From Candidatus Sumerlaeota bacterium (GTDB lineage: Bacteria; Sumerlaeota; Sumerlaeia; SLMS01), in contig JADLAR010000007.1 of the NCBI GenBank assembly GCA_020848155.1, positions 32,826 through 96,825 of the forward strand: DNA of 64,000 nt, written 5' to 3'. The translations under genes were made by a program, and so were the position numbers. Below are positions 45,066 through 52,961 of the stretch, piece by piece. The number at the start of each line of letters is the position of its first letter. Within the stretch, counting starts at the first letter, position 1. Below the pieces are notes generated by a model. That model was not told where the DNA came from. It searched no databases and saw nothing but the letters and a program-made list of their open reading frames with translations.

Positions 45066-45418
45066 GCGGGGGGCAGGCCGCATTCCGGTGTGGAATCCCC
45101 CTCGGGATCACGGGAAGGCGACGCTTGTCAGGTTTTCCCGTTCGTTAAACGAGATTTTTGCTAAAATGTTGATGATGCGGTCCAATCCGCAAGAGGTGCG
45201 GCTCAAAATCCTCTTGTACCCCATAGGCTGCCTGTCGTCCTTCATCCGAATGCCGGACGCGTTGGTTACTCGCGCAGATGGCCCATGCTGGTGAACTTGC
45301 AGCATGGCATGGTCTGGACGGACCATTCGATGGAAGTAACTCGAAATTGTGGCAGCGGTCTTTCCGCGCCCCAGAAATAGAGCTCCTCGCTGTGAAAGGA
45401 TTTCCCTCTACGCTTATG

Positions 45419-46465
45419 AAATTAACATCACTACGTGCGTCTCACCTCATTGCTGCGTTGATGATTGTTTCCGCACCTGCAGCCATTCTGGCGCAGGAGG
45501 AAGGCGGCGAACACACGCCGACGCATTCGCCGACCCCTTCACACACGCCGACGCATTCGCCGACGCCGACGCATTCCCACACGCCGAGCCCGAGCCCTTC
45601 GCATTCGCCGACGCCGACGCATTCGCACACGCCGAGCCCGAGCCCTTCGCACTCGCCAAGCCCGAGCCCTTCGCATTCGCCTTCTCACACCCCCTCCCTG
45701 ACAGCGTCGCCTTCACATTCGCCGTCACCCAGCCCGTCTCATTCACCGTCCCACACGCCTTCGCTGACAGCGTCGCCGTCGCCTTCGCACAGCCCGTCTC
45801 ATTCGCCGAGCCCGTCGCCTTCGATCTCGCCGTCGCACAGCCCGTCACCAAGCCCGTCACCGTCTCATTCGCCGAGCCCGAGCCTTACGCCAAGCCCGAC
45901 GCATTCACTGACGCCAAGCCCGTCACCATCGCATTCGCCGTCGCCGTCGTTGACGCCTTCGCTGACAGCGTCGCCGTCGCCTTCGCACAGCCCGTCTCAT
46001 TCGCCGAGCCCGTCGCCTTCGATCTCGCCGTCGCATAGCCCGTCACCGAGCGCATCACCTTCGCACTCGCCGACGCCGACACCGAGCCCGTCGCCTTCGC
46101 ACTCACCGTCGCTGACACCTTCCCCGAGCCACACTCCGAGCCTGACGGCATCGCCGTCGCCGTCGCACAGCCCATCCCATACGCCAAGCCCGTCGCCGAG
46201 CGCGTCACCTTCGCACTCGCCGTCACACACACCCACGCCGCATCCGACGCATACGCCGACGCATACACCGCATCCGACGGCGACGCCGCATCCGACGCAT
46301 ACACCACACCCGACGGCGACACCGCATCCAACGCATGAGCCGACGCACTCACCATTGCCGACTCACACGCCACACCCGACGGCGACACCTCACCCGACGC
46401 ATACGCCGCTTCCGACGCATGTGGCGACCCACACACCGGATCCGCATCACGCCACACGCGATTGA
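45419..46465 (+). CDS. Secreted His/Pro/Ser/Thr-rich tandem-repeat protein
   Basis: It has a signal peptide (MKLTSLRASHLIAALMIVSAPAAILAQEEGGEH). This is followed by more than 300 aa of (S-P-S-P-S-H-S-P-[TS]) and (T-H-T-P-H-P-T-A-T-P-H-P) repeats. The start was chosen at the Met at 45419 rather than the ORF-track start at 45278. Confidence 0.6.
   Translation, partial: KLTSLRASHLIAALMIVSAPAAILAQEEGGEHTPTHSPTPSHTPTHSPTPTHSHTPSPSPSHSPTPTHSHTPSPSPSHSPSPSPSHSPSHTPSLTASPSHSPSPSPSHSPSHTPSLTASPSPSHSPSHSPSPSPSISPSHSPSPSPSPSHSPSPSLTPSPTHSLTPSPSPSHSPSPSLTPSLTASPSPSHSPSHSPSPSPSISPSHSPSPSASPSHSPTPTPSPSPSHSPSLTPSPSHTPSLTASPSPSHSPSHTPSPSPSASPSHSPSHTPTPHPTHTPTHTPHPTATPHPTHTPHPTATPHPTHEPTHSPLPTHTPHPTATPHPTHTPLPTHVATHTPDPHHATRD
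45530..46440. repeat. About 0.9 kb of imperfect tandem DNA repeats (18-27-bp units such as cgcattcgccgacgccgac / ccgagcccttcgcattcgcc) encoding the low-complexity protein
   Basis: Multiple near-identical blocks are directly visible (for example, ACGCATTCGCACACGCCGAGCCCGAGCCCTTCGCA occurs at least twice and GCGTCGCCGTCGCCTTCGCACAGCCCGTCTCATTCGCCGAGCCCGTCGCCTTCGATCTCGCCGTCGCA occurs twice). Confidence 0.8.
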
Positions 46466-47278: not shown

Positions 47279-48445
47279 TTGCTAGCGGGAGCCTCTACCG
47301 AAAGGCGCTGTATGCAGAGCAATTCTCCCTTCCCGCGAAAAGTCGCACTGTTGTGCGGCGGGCAATCGGCGGAACACGTCGTCTCCCTAACGTCTGCGCG
47401 TTGCGTGGCCCACGCGCTGGACCGTCATCGCTATCGCGTTCGCGTGTTCGCGGTGATGGAGGATGGGTCGTGGGTGTGCCCGGATGATGAGTGGGATGGC
47501 AGCACGGTTCCGTCCCGCATTGAGAAGCTTTTCGACCTGCTGGATAATCCGGAGTACTGCCCCAGTGGTTACTTCAAGGTGCGCCCGGCGGTGGATGGCA
47601 TCCGGCGCCTTTGCGAGTGGGGGCCGGCGATCGTGCTACCGATCATGCACGGGACCTTTGGCGAGGATGGCAGACTTCAGGGGATGCTGGATTTCTTGGG
47701 GGTGCCGTATGTTGGAAGCGGCGTGATGGCGAGCGCGCTGGCGATGGACAAGCGCCGCGCGTCGAACTTCCTTGGCGCACAGGGCGTCCGCGTTCCGCGC
47801 CACGTGATCCTGCGTTCCGCAGCGCCGCGCGCCCACCGGGAGGACCAACTTCAGGGGGCGGGTACGCTGCTGGGCTGGCCGATCATCGTGAAGCCCTCGC
47901 GCGGCGGAAGCAGCGTGGCGACGGCGCTGGCGCATGACACGGATTCGCTTCATCGCGCCGTGGCGCGCGCGTTTGAGATCGATACGGAAGTCTTGATGGA
48001 GGAGTACGTGCGCGGCACGGAGGTGACCTGTGGCGTGCTGGACTTGGCGGAAGGCTATGGCGGCCGCATCGTGTGTCCGCCCACGGAAATTCGCACGCGC
48101 AATGGGGAACTGTTCAACTTCGACAGCAAGTATCGCCCCGGCGCGACGGAGGAGATCACCCCGGCGCAATTGCCGGAGCCGGTGATCCATCGCATCCAGA
48201 CGATCGCGGAGAAGGCGCACGAACAGATTGGCTGCACGGGGATGTCCCGCACGGACATGATCGTGCCGGAGGACGGCCAACCGGTGTTCCTGGAAACGAA
48301 CACGCTGCCGGGCATGACGTCCACGTCATTGTTGCCGCAGGGCGCTGCGGAGCTAGGCATCAGCATGACGGCGATGCTGACGGGCCTGGTCGAGGGTGTT
48401 TTCGAGACAATGATTGAAAAGAAGGCCCGGGACGACCGCTTCTGA
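47279..48445 (+). CDS. ddl: D-alanine--D-alanine ligase
   Basis: It has the ATP-grasp fold. Diagnostic motifs are ...PIIVKPSRGGSSVATALAHD...EEYVRGTEVTCGVL... and the C-terminal ...VFLETNTLPGMTSTSLLPQGAAELGISMTAMLTGLV. Confidence 0.85.
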   Translation: MLAGASTERRCMQSNSPFPRKVALLCGGQSAEHVVSLTSARCVAHALDRHRYRVRVFAVMEDGSWVCPDDEWDGSTVPSRIEKLFDLLDNPEYCPSGYFKVRPAVDGIRRLCEWGPAIVLPIMHGTFGEDGRLQGMLDFLGVPYVGSGVMASALAMDKRRASNFLGAQGVRVPRHVILRSAAPRAHREDQLQGAGTLLGWPIIVKPSRGGSSVATALAHDTDSLHRAVARAFEIDTEVLMEEYVRGTEVTCGVLDLAEGYGGRIVCPPTEIRTRNGELFNFDSKYRPGATEEITPAQLPEPVIHRIQTIAEKAHEQIGCTGMSRTDMIVPEDGQPVFLETNTLPGMTSTSLLPQGAAELGISMTAMLTGLVEGVFETMIEKKARDDRF

Positions 48446-48531: not shown

Positions 48532-48567
48532 CCCCCGCGCGAGGAATCGCGCGGGGGGATTATTTTA
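48532..48567 (+). terminator. Rho-independent terminator after ddl
   Basis: The stem is CCCCCGCGCGA-ggaat-CGCGCGGGGGG. It is followed by ATTATTTT. Confidence 0.65.
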
Positions 48568-48590: not shown

Positions 48591-49223
48591 TTGAGATTGA
48601 GCGAAAAATCCACCATAGAATACCAGCAACAGGGCAAAGAGATGATGGATGCGCACGAAAAATCAGAACGGCTCATCGAGGCGGCCACTGCGATTCTGGC
48701 CGCGGCACCCAATCATCGCCTCAACACCGTTGTACTTAACAAAGCCCTATTCTATCTTGATCTTGCTTCCCTCCGTGATGACGGAAAAACGATGACGGGT
48801 AATTCTTATATCGCCCTTCAGCAAGGACCGGTTGTGGCGAAATATCAGGAGCGGTTGATCGGCCAGTTGCAAGCACGTGTCATTGCAGAACAGTTGGACG
48901 AATGGGATGGATCGAAGCCGATTGTCCTAAAGAATGGTACCCTGCGTTCCCATCATCTCGATGCATCCGCAATGAGCAGGGCTGCTGGCATTACCGCCTT
49001 CTTTGCGAAACAGACGTCCCAGCAGGCGTCCGAGTATTCTCATGAAAATCCCGGTTGGCTGCTCGCTTGGGCGGAGTATCGCAGGTCGGGAAAGCCGTGC
49101 GCGATCGACATGCGAGTGGCGATGCAGCAGATCCTTCAAGACGATCCGTGGATGGATGAGCCGTTGATTGGCGATGAGGACATTCTGGCCGCAGACGACG
49201 CGGAATCCGGAACGGATTGGTGA
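48591..49223 (+). CDS. Panacea-domain (DUF4065) protein, a putative antitoxin (PanA-like)
   Basis: ...RLNTVVLNKALFYLDLASLRDDGKTMTGNSYIALQQGPVVAKYQERL... matches the DUF4065 core (hK-L-x-K-L-L-Y-[FY]-[AS]...W-x-x-GPV). The start is probably at MMDAHEKSERLIEAA. Its stop overlaps the next gene by 7 nt. Confidence 0.55.
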   Translation: MRLSEKSTIEYQQQGKEMMDAHEKSERLIEAATAILAAAPNHRLNTVVLNKALFYLDLASLRDDGKTMTGNSYIALQQGPVVAKYQERLIGQLQARVIAEQLDEWDGSKPIVLKNGTLRSHHLDASAMSRAAGITAFFAKQTSQQASEYSHENPGWLLAWAEYRRSGKPCAIDMRVAMQQILQDDPWMDEPLIGDEDILAADDAESGTDW

Positions 49224-49597
49224 CGCGTTACTCGCCTGAAGATGGAAAATGGCAAATCGGCGCAAAGGCAACATTGCTGATCGCTTTGCGCGAGCGAATG
49301 CTTCCAGAAGAATACGAAGCGAACAAACAAGCATTGAAAAGGTTTCTGTGCGGTTACTTTTCCTCAGGGGAATGCCAATCGCCGCAAGGTAGTTCCATCT
49401 GTCCCGTGAAGGCGACGCGAAAGGGCGGAAAGGTTCTCAAGGTTCGCTGGGCATATCCGGGGTGCGGCAAGAGCGGCAGCCTGCGATTGGTCGTTGTGGC
49501 GTACTGCAAACAACGACGGGTATTTATTGCAAAGGCATTTGATCGCAGAGAAGGTCCCTCAAGTGAGGATATTGTAAATGCCGTTGAGGATCTTTGA
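49217..49597 (+). CDS. RelE/HigB (Gp49-like) family type II toxin
   Basis: The C-terminal ...GCGKSGSLRLVVVAYCKQRRVFIAKAFDRREGPSSED... resembles HigB/RelE (...GGNELRVVAMVFFESQKCYIREVMTHKEYD...; GKSGGYRVIYY...iyLLtiYaKne). It is 126 aa and overlaps the upstream Panacea-domain gene. Confidence 0.5.
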   Translation: MVTRYSPEDGKWQIGAKATLLIALRERMLPEEYEANKQALKRFLCGYFSSGECQSPQGSSICPVKATRKGGKVLKVRWAYPGCGKSGSLRLVVVAYCKQRRVFIAKAFDRREGPSSEDIVNAVEDL

Positions 49598-49863
49598 TAA
49601 TAGAAAAATGAGGATAATGCGTAAGGGAGTTGATAACTATCTCAGCACCCAGCCTATATTCCGATAACGTAGGAATTTTTTCGCACTTTTGGGAACCTCT
49701 GACCTGACTTCATCTGTGCCTTCCTGCTGAGCGACAACCGTTTTCATCTCAGGGCGCGTTTGGCCGTCGTGCGGCGCGTTCGGGAGCACCCGATTCGCGG
49801 CTCAGTGGCGATTTTGTCCCGCTTGTCGCGCGCTGTTCCTGCATCAGGCATGCTTCTCCCTCA

Positions 49864-49888
49864 GGTAGTGTCCAGAGTTTTTCGCACA
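49864..49888 (+). repeat. 25-bp repeat GGTAGTGTCCAGAGTTTTTCGCACA, copy 1 (at the truncation point of the transposase remnant)
   Basis: It is identical to 50987-51011. A related fragment, TTTTTCGCAC-N4-GGAACC, is also at 49677-49697. Confidence 0.7.
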
Positions 49889-50090
49889 TTTGTTTGGGGC
49901 AGACCAGTACAACAATCGCCGGCCGCACTCGGCGCTCGGCTACTTGACTCCGGCGGCGTTTGCTGCCACACAACACGTGCCCAACACGAGCGGAGGGGAG
50001 GCCGGCCCGGCCACCCGCAAGGCCCCTCCTTTTCGTTCAAATGTTGGGGTGGATTCGAACCGGGAAACTCTCATAGCGAGTGGTACATAA
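49869..50090 (+). pseudogene. IS3-family transposase (rve integrase core) C-terminal remnant
   Basis: The translation ...HLFGADQYNNRRPHSALGYLTPAAFAATQH... is the conserved end of the DDE integrase domain (-YN-x-x-RPHS-x-LGY-x-TP). The frame is closed by a stop at 49866, so only about 73 codons remain. Confidence 0.65.
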
Positions 50091-50175
50091 AATGGGGGCA
50101 GGCCACCACGGATCCTGACTGTAATGCGAGCAAAGTTACAAGAGATTCCCTGCAATTTTTGAAGAGCGGAAACAT

Positions 50176-50973
50176 ATGAGACTACCAACCCTCCTTTTTC
50201 TGTCGGCCCTTAGCATCGCTTTCTGTCCCAATCTCGTCTTTGCCGACGATGGTTCAGTGAAAGCTCCTTTGTCCCAGGTAGACTCTCTGACGTCATTCAC
50301 ATCTGTGCGGGAGTTTGTGTATGGTCTTCGCATGAATCCAGAATTCGCACAGTATGCCTCCGTCTCCGGGTCCAGCGAGCAACGCCTGTTCGTTTATGAA
50401 GGCCGGGAGCAGGCATTTGAAAGAGCGAAGGTGACTCCGAGGACTGAACCAATGCGAGGCTTCGACAACACAGTAGAACTTGGTCCACTGGTCAGAAAAA
50501 AACACCAGAAGCAAATCCACTTTAATCAAGCGTTAGGGCTCACCGAGCAGAATTTGAACACGGCATTGTCCATGGCAGCCACCCATGCCACGGTGAATAA
50601 GGAAAAACACTGGATATCCGTATCGGATGCGGATTTGCAAACAGACACATGGCCTCTTAACTGGGAGCTGGATGTGTATGCGGCAAGGCCGTTGACGGCG
50701 GCAGAGATCAATCAGCTTCTTCGCAAAAAATATTTGTGGGATGATGGAACAACCAACACGGCTGCGCGCTATCAATTTGTGAAGAACGAAAACAACCAGA
50801 TATGGGATGGAAATATAAAAGACAAAACGGTTCGCGACCTTGTCTATACCCTGCTCGATGAGAGCCTTAAGGAACGAACAAAGGGCCGGAACATACATGG
50901 TTTTGCATTTCAGATTCTTCCCGTGGACGTTGATTCTTCCGGCGTTATGTCGTGGAATGTTTTGCTGCTGTAG
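50176..50973 (+). CDS. Secreted hypothetical protein (265 aa) in a lower-GC segment
   Basis: It has a signal peptide (MRLPTLLFLSALSIAFCPNLVFADDG). No recognisable domain was found. It is flanked by the 25-bp repeat copies. Confidence 0.5.
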   Translation: MRLPTLLFLSALSIAFCPNLVFADDGSVKAPLSQVDSLTSFTSVREFVYGLRMNPEFAQYASVSGSSEQRLFVYEGREQAFERAKVTPRTEPMRGFDNTVELGPLVRKKHQKQIHFNQALGLTEQNLNTALSMAATHATVNKEKHWISVSDADLQTDTWPLNWELDVYAARPLTAAEINQLLRKKYLWDDGTTNTAARYQFVKNENNQIWDGNIKDKTVRDLVYTLLDESLKERTKGRNIHGFAFQILPVDVDSSGVMSWNVLLL

Positions 50974-50986
50974 TCTTCTGTATGAG

Positions 50987-51011
50987 GGTAGTGTCCAGAG
51001 TTTTTCGCACA
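50987..51011 (+). repeat. 25-bp repeat GGTAGTGTCCAGAGTTTTTCGCACA, copy 2
   Basis: It is an exact direct copy of 49864-49888 and lies 14 bp after the stop of the secreted-protein gene. Its continuation (..CGCACAAAGGAACC) matches the third fragment at 49677-49697. Confidence 0.7.
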
Positions 51012-51207: not shown

Positions 51208-51447
51208 TCACTCCTTCACCCGCTCCCGATTTTTTTCTTCTCCTTCATCCTCTTCCCTGCCGAATTGGTCGTCGAATTCGACGCGGCTGGCGGCGTCGTC
51301 TGCGTCGGTGTCGATGAGGCGTGCGGGACCGAGGGTTTCCTCGAAATACTTCATGAGGTCCTTCACGCGGCGTGGCGGAAGGCCGTCGACTTCGATGAGG
51401 ATTTCGCCCTTCTTTGTGATGCGGACGGTGAATTCTTCCTTCGCCAT
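51208..51447 (-). CDS. Small acidic protein (79 aa), DUF2997-like
   Basis: MAKEEFTVRITKKGEILIEVDGLPPRRVKDLMKYFEETLGPARL follows the DUF2997 pattern (M..ie..I..dG.v.ve..G..G..C.d....le..lG) but lacks the Cys. An acidic tail follows. There is an AAGGGA Shine-Dalgarno-like sequence about 10 nt upstream. Confidence 0.4.
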   Translation of the reverse strand: MAKEEFTVRITKKGEILIEVDGLPPRRVKDLMKYFEETLGPARLIDTDADDAASRVEFDDQFGREEDEGEEKNRERVKE

Positions 51448-51559: not shown

Positions 51560-51844
51560 ATGACAAGAGCGGAACTGATTGATATCGTTGCTGAGAAGAA
51601 TCCGGGTTTGACGAAGGCGCAGGTGGCAGAGGTTTACGATGCGATCTTTGATACGATCACGCGGGCGTTGAAGGATGATGAGAAGCATCGTTTCCTGGTG
51701 AATGGTTTCGGGACGTTTGAGTTGAAGCATCGCGCGGCGCGCAAGGGGATCAATCCCGCCACGCGCGAGGTGATCGACATCGCGGCGTCGACGACGGTGG
51801 GCTTCAAGCCGGCGCCGGCATTGAAGGATGCGCTTGGCAAGTGA
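51560..51844 (+). CDS. HU/IHF-family nucleoid-associated DNA-binding protein
   Basis: Its sequence is MTRAELIDIVAEKNPGLTKAQVAEVYDAIFDTITRALKDDEKHRFLVNGFGTFELKHRAARKGINPATREVIDIAASTTVGFKPAPALKDALGK (94 aa). The conserved GFGTF...R.ARKGRNP.T motif is present. The ORF-track 5' extension (from 51140) is rejected. Confidence 0.85.
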   Translation: MTRAELIDIVAEKNPGLTKAQVAEVYDAIFDTITRALKDDEKHRFLVNGFGTFELKHRAARKGINPATREVIDIAASTTVGFKPAPALKDALGK

Positions 51845-51968: not shown

Positions 51969-52550
51969 TTAGTAGGAGCGTGATGTGGGGCCGGAGACGC
52001 TCTTGGATTGGTAGGTGCTGGGGTTGCCGACGGCGGGGTTGCTTGCGCCGTAGTCGACGGCGTTTTCGATGGAGCCTGCGGTGCCCTTGAATTCATCGCG
52101 GTAGAGCGGGAGGCGGTCTCCCCACACGGTGGGAAGGACGAATTCGGGTTCCATGATGACTTGGTAGTCGCTGGGGACGGGGAAGGGGAAGCTGATGATT
52201 TCGTAGGCGCCGACGAAGGTGCGGGCGACGGCGATGACGACGCCCTTGAAGACGCCGAGGACGGTGCCGGTGATGGGGTCGGTGCGGGTCCATTCCTTGG
52301 CGATTTGCTTGGGGATTTCGACCCATCCGGTGAGGACGTTCACGACGCCGCGGCCAAGTTTATGGAACATCTTGTAGATGTCGCTGCTTTCGCGCTCCAA
52401 TTCGGTGGATGCGACGGGCTGGGCCGTGGCGACATTGGTGGCAATGGGGGTGGCGATGACCATGAGTGCCATGATGAGTGCGACCATTGCTTTTGCAAAC
52501 TTGGGAAGGCGAACCATTTCCGTCAAATCCTCCTGGGGAGATTCCGTCAC
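51969..52550 (-). CDS. Small secreted protein, paralog A (resembles the exosortase-system-associated TIGR04073 family; tentative)
   Basis: It has a signal peptide (MVRLPKFAKAMVALIMALMVIATPIATNVATA). The conserved core is KLGRGVVNVLTGWVEIPKQI...DPITGTVLGVFKG...FPFP. The start is probably at the internal Met at 52517. Confidence 0.45.
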   Translation of the reverse strand: MTESPQEDLTEMVRLPKFAKAMVALIMALMVIATPIATNVATAQPVASTELERESSDIYKMFHKLGRGVVNVLTGWVEIPKQIAKEWTRTDPITGTVLGVFKGVVIAVARTFVGAYEIISFPFPVPSDYQVIMEPEFVLPTVWGDRLPLYRDEFKGTAGSIENAVDYGASNPAVGNPSTYQSKSVSGPTSRSY

Positions 52551-52568: not shown

Positions 52569-52961
52569 TTATTGCACTTCGTCGATGAAGGGGAACTCTG
52601 TCCGCTGAATCGACTGATAGTTGTTTCCGTAGATATCAATGGGGAAGGTGACGACGTCAACAACGCCGAGCACGAGCCGCTGGCCGGTGAAGTAGAGGCC
52701 GCGGAAGAACCCCGTAAAGGTGCCGGACGTTGGGTCCGTGTTTTGGATGCCGTGGTTGATTTCGTAGGGAAATTCGACCCAGCAGAATGCGATATTGCCG
52801 ACGCCGCGGCCAAGTTTCGCGAAGATCTTGCTGAAGTAGGTGCTGCCGTACAGGGGGCCCGTGGCGCGGGCGGAGTCTTGGGCGGAGAACATCAGTGCCG
52901 CCACAAGGACCGCGAGGGAAACGGGTCTGCCAAGCTTTTTGAGCAAAGCCTTCATCGTCAT
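52569..52961 (-). CDS. Small secreted protein, paralog B (same family as 51969-52550)
   Basis: It has a signal peptide. The same core is present: KLGRGVGNIAFCWVEFPYEI...DPTSGTFTGFFRG...FPI. Confidence 0.45.
   Translation of the reverse strand: MTMKALLKKLGRPVSLAVLVAALMFSAQDSARATGPLYGSTYFSKIFAKLGRGVGNIAFCWVEFPYEINHGIQNTDPTSGTFTGFFRGLYFTGQRLVLGVVDVVTFPIDIYGNNYQSIQRTEFPFIDEVQ

Follow-up and report, generated by a model that had tools for sequence, protein, structure and literature searches.

A probable PanAT toxin-antitoxin cassette with a HigB2/RelE-fold partner and a conserved acidic tail in Candidatus Sumerlaeota

Two small genes follow the terminator of ddl in a stretch of 64,000 nucleotides (nt) from a Candidatus Sumerlaeota bacterium (assembly GCA_020848155.1, contig JADLAR010000007.1, positions 32,826 to 96,825 of the forward strand), which is referred to as the window in the following. 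In an earlier note on this DNA the first gene was read as encoding a Panacea-domain (DUF4065) protein and the second a RelE/HigB-like toxin, and both their pairing and their order were considered unusual. The question raised by the locus is then what kind of system the two genes form, and how far it departs from those already described. The pair is probably an intact, horizontally acquired type II toxin-antitoxin (TA) cassette of the PanAT kind, where a HigB2/RelE-type toxin able to cleave messenger RNA (mRNA) would be held in check by a Panacea antitoxin with a neutralising acidic tail. The parts of the cassette are as follows, with protein lengths in amino acids (aa):

48645-49223 (alternative ATG at 48642), + strand: panA, predicted Panacea-domain antitoxin, 192 aa, assigned by its PF13274 match and its homologues
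49220-49597, + strand: panT, predicted HigB2/RelE-fold toxin, 125 aa, with a GTG start that overlaps the panA stop
49140-49220, + strand: acidic tail, PanA residues 166-192 (DDPWMDEPLIGDEDILAADDAESGTDW), a candidate toxin-neutralising element

The two open reading frames (ORFs) described earlier, 48591-49223 (210 aa) and 49217-49597 (126 aa), are indeed present on the + strand with an overlap of 7 nt, but their start codons did not stand. Because the homologues are 192 and 124-125 aa long, the real starts are judged to be the ATG at 48645 (or 48642) for panA and the GTG at 49220 for panT. In the corrected junction the GTG of panT overlaps the stop codon of panA as GTGA, an overlap of 4 nt that is the counterpart of the ATGA junction in related loci.

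The identity of the first protein is clear. PanA matches Pfam PF13274 SocA_Panacea (DUF4065) over model positions 1-112 of 113 with a score of 39.9 bits (E 9.2e-10), which exceeds the curated gathering threshold of 25.7 bits, and the DUF4065 assignment of the earlier note thereby passes the HMM check. Nearly all of the 181 PanA homologues are 192 aa long and start with M-D/E-x-x-E-K, and among the matches listed PF13274 is carried by 120 out of 120. The AlphaFold2 model of PanA has a pLDDT (predicted local distance difference test) of 86, with residues 1-165 modelled confidently as a globular part. PanA is a Panacea protein with no helix-turn-helix (HTH) match in Pfam, in agreement with the earlier view that the partner of the toxin is neither a HigA nor a RelB antitoxin. 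When compared with the PDB, neither the PanA model (Foldseek) nor the PanA profile finds a significant fold or sequence relative. Among solved structures, the model (residues from 48645-49220) comes closest to the M. tuberculosis DarTG toxin-antitoxin complex 7yk3, chain D (Foldseek E 0.067, probability 0.92, TM-score 0.43), and many weak winged-helix matches rank below it; these may give a hint about the ancestry of the Panacea fold as modelled. A sequence match of the Panacea profile to 'StSS' (E 0.03) was set aside as probably due to chance.

The second protein belongs to a small family, comprising 152 clusters at 50% identity in a profile search with E<=1e-3. A profile made from 64 diverse members of this family was compared with 177,635 PDB sequences and found only V. 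cholerae HigB-2 (E 0.0018), in an alignment that spans KxR..PGxGKSGGxR. PF06296, the Pfam family of HigB-2-like RelE toxins, is matched at E<0.01 by 24 of the 64 diverse members (best E 1.1e-7), and several close homologues of PanT have a precomputed match to it. The predicted structure leads in the same direction. PanT displays the antiparallel β-sheet and the N-terminal helices of the RelE/ParE structural superfamily together with similarity to its solved members, and the top 33 Foldseek matches all belong to this superfamily. The structural comparison is headed by V. cholerae HigB2 (VcHigB2, score 8.1), S. pneumoniae HigB (8.0), P. horikoshii RelE (7.5), PrpT (7.2), and M. tuberculosis HigB1 (7.1), while ParE, YafQ, and YoeB rank after the last of these. 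The earlier proposal of a Panacea gene coupled to a RelE/HigB-fold gene is thus borne out by the diverse profile, the structural matches, and the Pfam matches within the family. Within Pfam, the PanT family is a borderline case of PF06296.

In VcHigB2, alanine mutants of R51, R64, Y82, and K84 lose 170- to 3000-fold of the activity, and the Gly/Lys-rich β2-β3 loop matters for activity as well (Hadzi et al., PMC5416850). In a HMMER alignment of the 64 diverse members these residues correspond to the following positions of PanT:

VcHigB2 R51: PanT R76, kept in 63 of 64 members
VcHigB2 R64: PanT R89, kept in 62 of 64 members
VcHigB2 K84: PanT R109, kept in 60 of 64 members, with Lys in three more
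VcHigB2 Y82: PanT F107, an unconserved position (W in 20, F in 12, and Y in 4 of 64 members)

In addition, all 64 members share K74 of PanT, and the loop has the conserved form PGxGKSG. The core of the protein, residues 60-112, carries a charge of +11.7. These residues also bear on the mode of action. The same TA cassette could in principle contain a toxin that acts like ParE, poisoning DNA gyrase with no cleavage of mRNA on the ribosome. This is improbable, as the top structural matches and the sole sequence-level match in the PDB are HigB2, HigB, and RelE proteins, the Pfam signal is to PF06296 and not to ParE_toxin, and the near-invariant HigB2-type Gly/Lys loop and the Arg/Arg/Lys(Arg) constellation are absent from ParE proteins.

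The two genes are conserved as a unit. Of the 41 loci fetched via toxin homologues, 40 have a Panacea gene as the immediate upstream neighbour, with an overlapping junction alike in nearly all of them, and such a gene is likewise found upstream of all three distant toxins studied (40, 34, and 25% identity). PanT family members are essentially always coupled to Panacea, and they are unusually constrained. The locus thereby corresponds to what Kurata et al. (2022) call PanAT, a Panacea gene in a conserved two-gene TA-like locus across genomes. The cassette is found in the genomes of 31 species, one of them labelled Sumerlaeota, two Chitinophaga, and one 'uncultured bacterium', while the others have Planctomycetota names. 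The flanking genes are unrelated between lineages and include a peptide-binding protein gene with copper-resistance genes, a type I restriction-modification (R-M) operon, housekeeping genes, and DNA rich in insertion sequences (IS). Nucleotide similarity between the window and related PanAT loci covers 48644-49601 only, that is, the two genes. A conserved third gene was considered as well and is ruled out, since the DNA similarity ends at the two ORFs.

Two of the related loci deserve a separate description. In Pirellulimonas nuda (CP036291.1, locus L003, 5423-6375) the cassette interrupts a type I R-M operon, with hsdR on one side and hsdS/hsdM on the other; it lies on the strand opposite to the operon, close to a resolvase gene, and no other context seen resembles a defence island. 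The exception to the upstream Panacea gene is found in Lacipirellula limnantheis (NZ_CP036339.1, locus L039, 5941-6345), where the toxin homologue is 56% identical, has a replaced N-terminus, and carries Ser in place of the conserved Cys96. This copy appears to be a decayed orphan relic.

In comparisons of panA and panT the synonymous sites are saturated, while the rate of nonsynonymous substitution (dN) is 0.10-0.39. Because the synonymous rate (dS) is saturated at such dN values, panA with its tail and panT are evidently under long-term purifying selection; dN/dS is 0.05-0.16 for panA where it is computable and about 0.07-0.12 for panT. Recent horizontal transfer as the cause of the high protein identity is ruled out by the same saturation.

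Taken as a locus, the pair has the general features of a type II TA system: small, co-directional and overlapping genes, isoelectric points of 4.9 for PanA vs 9.5 for PanT, a patchy occurrence in varied contexts, and a foreign GC content at third codon positions (GC3). Several observations nevertheless weigh against a TA cassette with an active HigB2-type ribonuclease (RNase). PanT itself scores 24.2 bits against PF06296, below the curated gathering score of 27 bits, and the match covers only the central motif (model positions 39-75 of 120). A profile made from close PanT homologues finds nothing significant in the PDB, and the Foldseek scores of PanT are modest (E about 0.01, TM-score 0.4-0.65). 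The equivalent of Tyr82, whose loss costs VcHigB2 1200-fold in activity (PMC5416850), is not kept at position 107. PanT further has three conserved cysteines, C44, C52, and C96 (in 43, 57, and 59 of the 64 diverse members), for which RelE/HigB2 toxins offer no known role or counterpart; they could form a disulfide, bind a metal, or act as a redox switch. In the portion of Dataset S1 covered here, the RelE-type PanAT clusters T14, T28, and T59 are all marked 'notest' (PMC8832971). NCBIfam and PADLOC scans of PanA and PanT gave no matches, nor did the plasmid and phage collections searched with the PanT protein, so that a role in defence or as a mobile element is unsupported beyond the one locus embedded in an R-M operon.

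Some of these points are what would be expected if the pair were no TA system at all, but a catalytically dead RelE-fold protein and its neighbour working together in another role, for instance in a regulatory or phage-related complex. The missing Tyr82 equivalent, the cysteines, and the 'notest' entries all fit such a role, as do a purifying selection that is tighter than usual for a TA pair and the name 'uncharacterized phage-associated protein' given to Panacea homologues in some sources. It is all the same quite improbable, more so than a ParE-like toxin. The genes are small and overlapping, with an acidic product encoded first and a basic one second, their distribution is patchy and their contexts unrelated, the basic active-site residues are conserved, and the toxin has decayed as an orphan where the Panacea gene has been lost, as in L. 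limnantheis. It may also be asked, as the earlier note did in naming what would refute its reading, whether the roles are swapped, with a toxic Panacea protein counteracted by the RelE-fold protein. The likelihood of this is close to negligible: every validated Panacea protein is an antitoxin (PMC8832971; PMC10440598), the RelE fold, here with conserved basic residues, is that of a toxin, and an acidic upstream and a basic downstream product is the standard antitoxin-toxin layout. PanA as antitoxin and PanT as toxin remains the reading that agrees best with the locus, and the cassette could have a role such as phage defence or selfish maintenance.

If PanA is the antitoxin, its C-terminal tail is the part most likely to act on the toxin. 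The 27 residues contain 11 acidic and no basic residues and thus have a net charge of -11. The homologue alignment shows no variation at D167, W169, and the terminal W192 and hardly any at P168, M170, P173, L181, A184, D185, and G189, so that the tail ranks with the best-conserved parts of the protein. The AlphaFold2 confidence is nevertheless low here, declining to about 40-50 (from 74 at first to 38 at the lowest), and the model shows a short helix at residues 178-186. It has been shown that C. doosanense PanA consists of a Panacea domain (1-154) and a Phd-C part (155-188), and that the tail alone suffices for neutralisation (PMC10440598). Based on the charge complementarity, the conservation together with the predicted disorder, and the parallel with C. 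doosanense PanA, the tail of the PanA studied here probably binds the basic core of PanT and thereby neutralises it.

The other way for PanA to act on an RNase toxin would be that the globular Panacea domain neutralises by direct contact, as in B. choladocola PanA, leaving the tail as a degron or a regulator. Standalone Panacea is able to neutralise directly according to the NetFlax study (PMC10440598). The conservation of PanA is high over the whole protein and not only in the tail, and the dN/dS of the tail (0.09-0.38) is somewhat above that of the core. On the other hand, a tail of -11 faces a toxin core of +11.7, the Trp and Asp residues of the tail are invariant in spite of the predicted disorder, and the nearest architectural analogue, Panacea plus Phd-C, neutralises via its tail. 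Direct contact by the globular domain is therefore a rather doubtful alternative, although one with better prospects than a ParE-like toxin or a pair outside the TA systems. Neutralisation through the tail is preferred, and it is also in line with the hypothesis of Ernits et al. (2023) that the Panacea domain is a scaffold or a trigger sensor with an appended neutralising element (PMC10440598).

The cassette may well have a promoter of its own. Upstream of panA the following element is found:

48591-48621, + strand: promoter-like element of the cassette, -35 hexamer TTGAGA at 48591-48596, 19-nt spacer, -10 hexamer TAGAAT at 48616-48621

The TTG at 48591, which the earlier note took for the start codon of the first gene, is part of this -35 hexamer, and the end of the -10 hexamer is 23 nt from the panA ATG. 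In 16 of 29 loci a TTGNNN-N16-19-TANNNT pair has its end 16-53 nt before the Panacea ATG, against 1.1 +/- 1.0 (maximum 5) in shuffled sequences, and GGATTC(G)AGTTGAGATT is common to the three Sumerlaeota loci at this element. Judged by its consensus match, the element would function as the promoter of the cassette.

In the mechanism proposed for the PanAT pair, the two genes would be transcribed from this promoter as a translationally coupled bicistron. PanT would be a divergent member of the HigB2/RelE family that moves into the A site of the ribosome and there cuts mRNA under translation, using K74, R76, R89, and R109 together with the Gly/Lys-rich β2-β3 loop (PGxGKSG) in the same way as V. 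cholerae HigB2. PanA would consist of a globular Panacea domain (1-165) and the conserved acidic tail (166-192), the latter disordered on its own. By folding onto the basic RNA-binding face of PanT, the tail would keep the toxin off the ribosome, while the Panacea domain might act as a scaffold or a trigger sensor, as suggested for other PanA proteins with an appended neutralising element. A more far-reaching version can be imagined, although it is unlikely to hold in full: the tail could be an undescribed Panacea-associated neutralising element dedicated to HigB2-type toxins, and the family of about 150 clusters a Planctomycetota-wide phage-defence module, where Panacea senses infection and releases a cysteine-bearing RelE-type RNase, possibly modulated by redox state or metal.

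The DNA around the cassette differs from the rest of the window. The neighbouring features are:

47279-48445: ddl, D-Ala-D-Ala ligase, the upstream neighbour (Pfam Dala_Dala_lig_C, E 2.4e-46)
48532-48557, + strand: intrinsic terminator of ddl, with an 11-bp stem containing 10 G-C pairs, a 4-nt loop, and then GATTATTTTA
49864-51011, + strand: neighbouring foreign DNA outside the conserved cassette, with 25-nt repeats, an rve_3 fragment, and a 265-aa ORF
49864-49888 and 50987-51011: perfect 25-nt direct repeat (GGTAGTGTCCAGAGTTTTTCGCACA), with 0 expected by chance
49890-50090: rve_3 transposase C-terminal fragment, downstream of the pair (Pfam E 4.5e-6)
50176-50973: 265-aa ORF with a signal peptide, predicted to be secreted and without a family (GC 0.47-0.50)

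The terminator of ddl, with its T-rich tail, is the left border of a low-GC patch; it belongs to the context and not to the cassette. Over about 48.5-51.2 kb the GC content drops from 0.62-0.67 to 0.47-0.58, and housekeeping genes restart at an HU-like gene at 51560. The cassette itself has a GC content of 0.534 vs 0.600 for the window, and GC3 is 0.59 for panA and 0.51 for panT vs 0.79 for ddl. The GC and GC3 values, the terminator, and the rve_3 fragment agree with the earlier description of the pair as located immediately 3' of the ddl terminator, at the start of a lower-GC stretch with IS debris; this DNA looks foreign. The direct repeats flank a 1.1-kb unit made up of the rve_3 fragment and the 265-aa ORF, which may be the leftover of an insertion or recombination event. 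The ORF has no match in Pfam, NCBIfam, or PADLOC. None of the related PanAT loci shares the DNA at 49864-51011, and the IS debris and the 265-aa ORF are placed outside the module because the DNA similarity is confined to 48644-49601. That the pair has been inserted relative to ddl is an idea suggested by the composition and by the differing contexts of the cassette elsewhere. A metagenome scan with ddl found relatives at no more than 38% identity and no close relative, and it is uninformative with regard to synteny.

Some other features of the window were observed along the way. On the - strand at 51208-51447, antisense to a long spurious ORF upstream of the HU gene, a 79-aa ORF (MAKEEFTVRITKKGEILIEVDGLPP..., with an acidic C-terminus) looks like a real small protein; it has no match in Pfam or NCBIfam. 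The product of a 395-aa ORF at 45278-46465 (+ strand) has at its N-terminus a hydrophobic segment resembling a signal peptide, after which low-complexity repeats of the (H/T)SPSPS type extend over about 300 residues; the GC skew of this region is very negative, and the ORF has no Pfam match. Two paralogous genes of the exosortase-system-associated TIGR04073 family lie in tandem on the - strand, at 51969-52550 (E 5e-26) and 52569-52961 (E 8e-19).

When it comes to known systems, the earlier note turns out to have overrated how unusual the locus is. An antitoxin gene upstream of the toxin gene is the canonical type II order, and it is the order with the toxin upstream that is less common among Panacea pairs (Kurata et al., 2022; PMC8832971). 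The Panacea partners named in that study include ParE, PemK, and MqsR-like toxins, and in the portion covered, Dataset S1 already contains Panacea-first clusters with RelE/HigB-type toxins: T14 (A|T), where the toxin scores 99.7% against 'Toxin HigB-2' in HHpred, and T28 and T59, with RelE/ParE/YoeB-like toxins (PMC8832971). The present pair resembles T14, T28, and T59, as far as their entries in that portion go, in having a PF13274 gene first and a small gene for a RelE/HigB-2/ParE-fold protein second, in its short or overlapping junction, and in its patchy two-gene loci. The T14 members listed there are from Methanobacteria, Saccharibacteria, Cryosericota, and Bacteroidetes, and many of their PanA proteins have an HTH N-terminal domain, whereas the family described here is found in Planctomycetota and Sumerlaeota, lacks an HTH, and has an acidic, Trp-terminated tail. 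The automatic UniProt/NCBI names of homologues from cultured Planctomycetota are 'Toxin HigB-2' and 'type II toxin-antitoxin system antitoxin SocA domain-containing protein'. The accessions WP_145280323 and WP_145280325 (Pirellulimonas nuda) and WP_145117308 (Rosistilla oblonga) gave no match in the searched parts of the supplements of the two Panacea papers, which proves nothing about their absence.

In canonical HigBA systems the toxin gene lies upstream of an Xre-type HTH HigA gene, an arrangement that the PanAT pair does not have. V. cholerae HigBA2 (PDB 5JA8, 5JA9, 5MJE, and 8A0X; PF06296) likewise has the toxin gene first, and its HTH antitoxin neutralises via an N-terminal helix and strand, in contrast to the present pair, where a Panacea antitoxin with no HTH is encoded first. 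PanT is only 11-15% identical to HigB2 and differs from it further in that Tyr82 is not conserved, in its three conserved cysteines, and in scoring below the PF06296 cut-off. SocAB of Caulobacter crescentus, where the name SocA_Panacea comes from, shares a Panacea-type domain in its antitoxin. SocA serves as an adaptor for the proteolysis of SocB, a toxin that acts by blocking the replication clamp; nothing in the PanAT pair suggests a SocA-like mode. The architecture of PanA is closest to that of C. doosanense PanA-Doc, where about 30 residues are likewise appended to the C-terminus of a globular Panacea domain (about 155-165 aa; PMC10440598). The C. doosanense toxin, however, is Fic/Doc and not of the RelE fold, and the tail of the PanA studied here is unrelated in sequence and far more acidic, its function being proposed by analogy.

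This kind of cassette is thus already catalogued by computation, with RelE-type partners and the antitoxin-first order on record. What may be new is modest, namely a tightly conserved, Planctomycetota-centred family with an acidic, Trp-terminated tail and conserved toxin cysteines. With it the Panacea network gains a well-delimited family that occurs across Planctomycetota and also in Sumerlaeota, two groups with almost no characterised TA biology. The understanding of Panacea systems is otherwise unchanged by the pair. It does offer a clean test case for the NetFlax question of whether the Panacea domain is the neutraliser itself or a sensor with an appended neutralising peptide, as the conserved acidic tail has a length of no more than 27 residues and could easily be truncated or transplanted.

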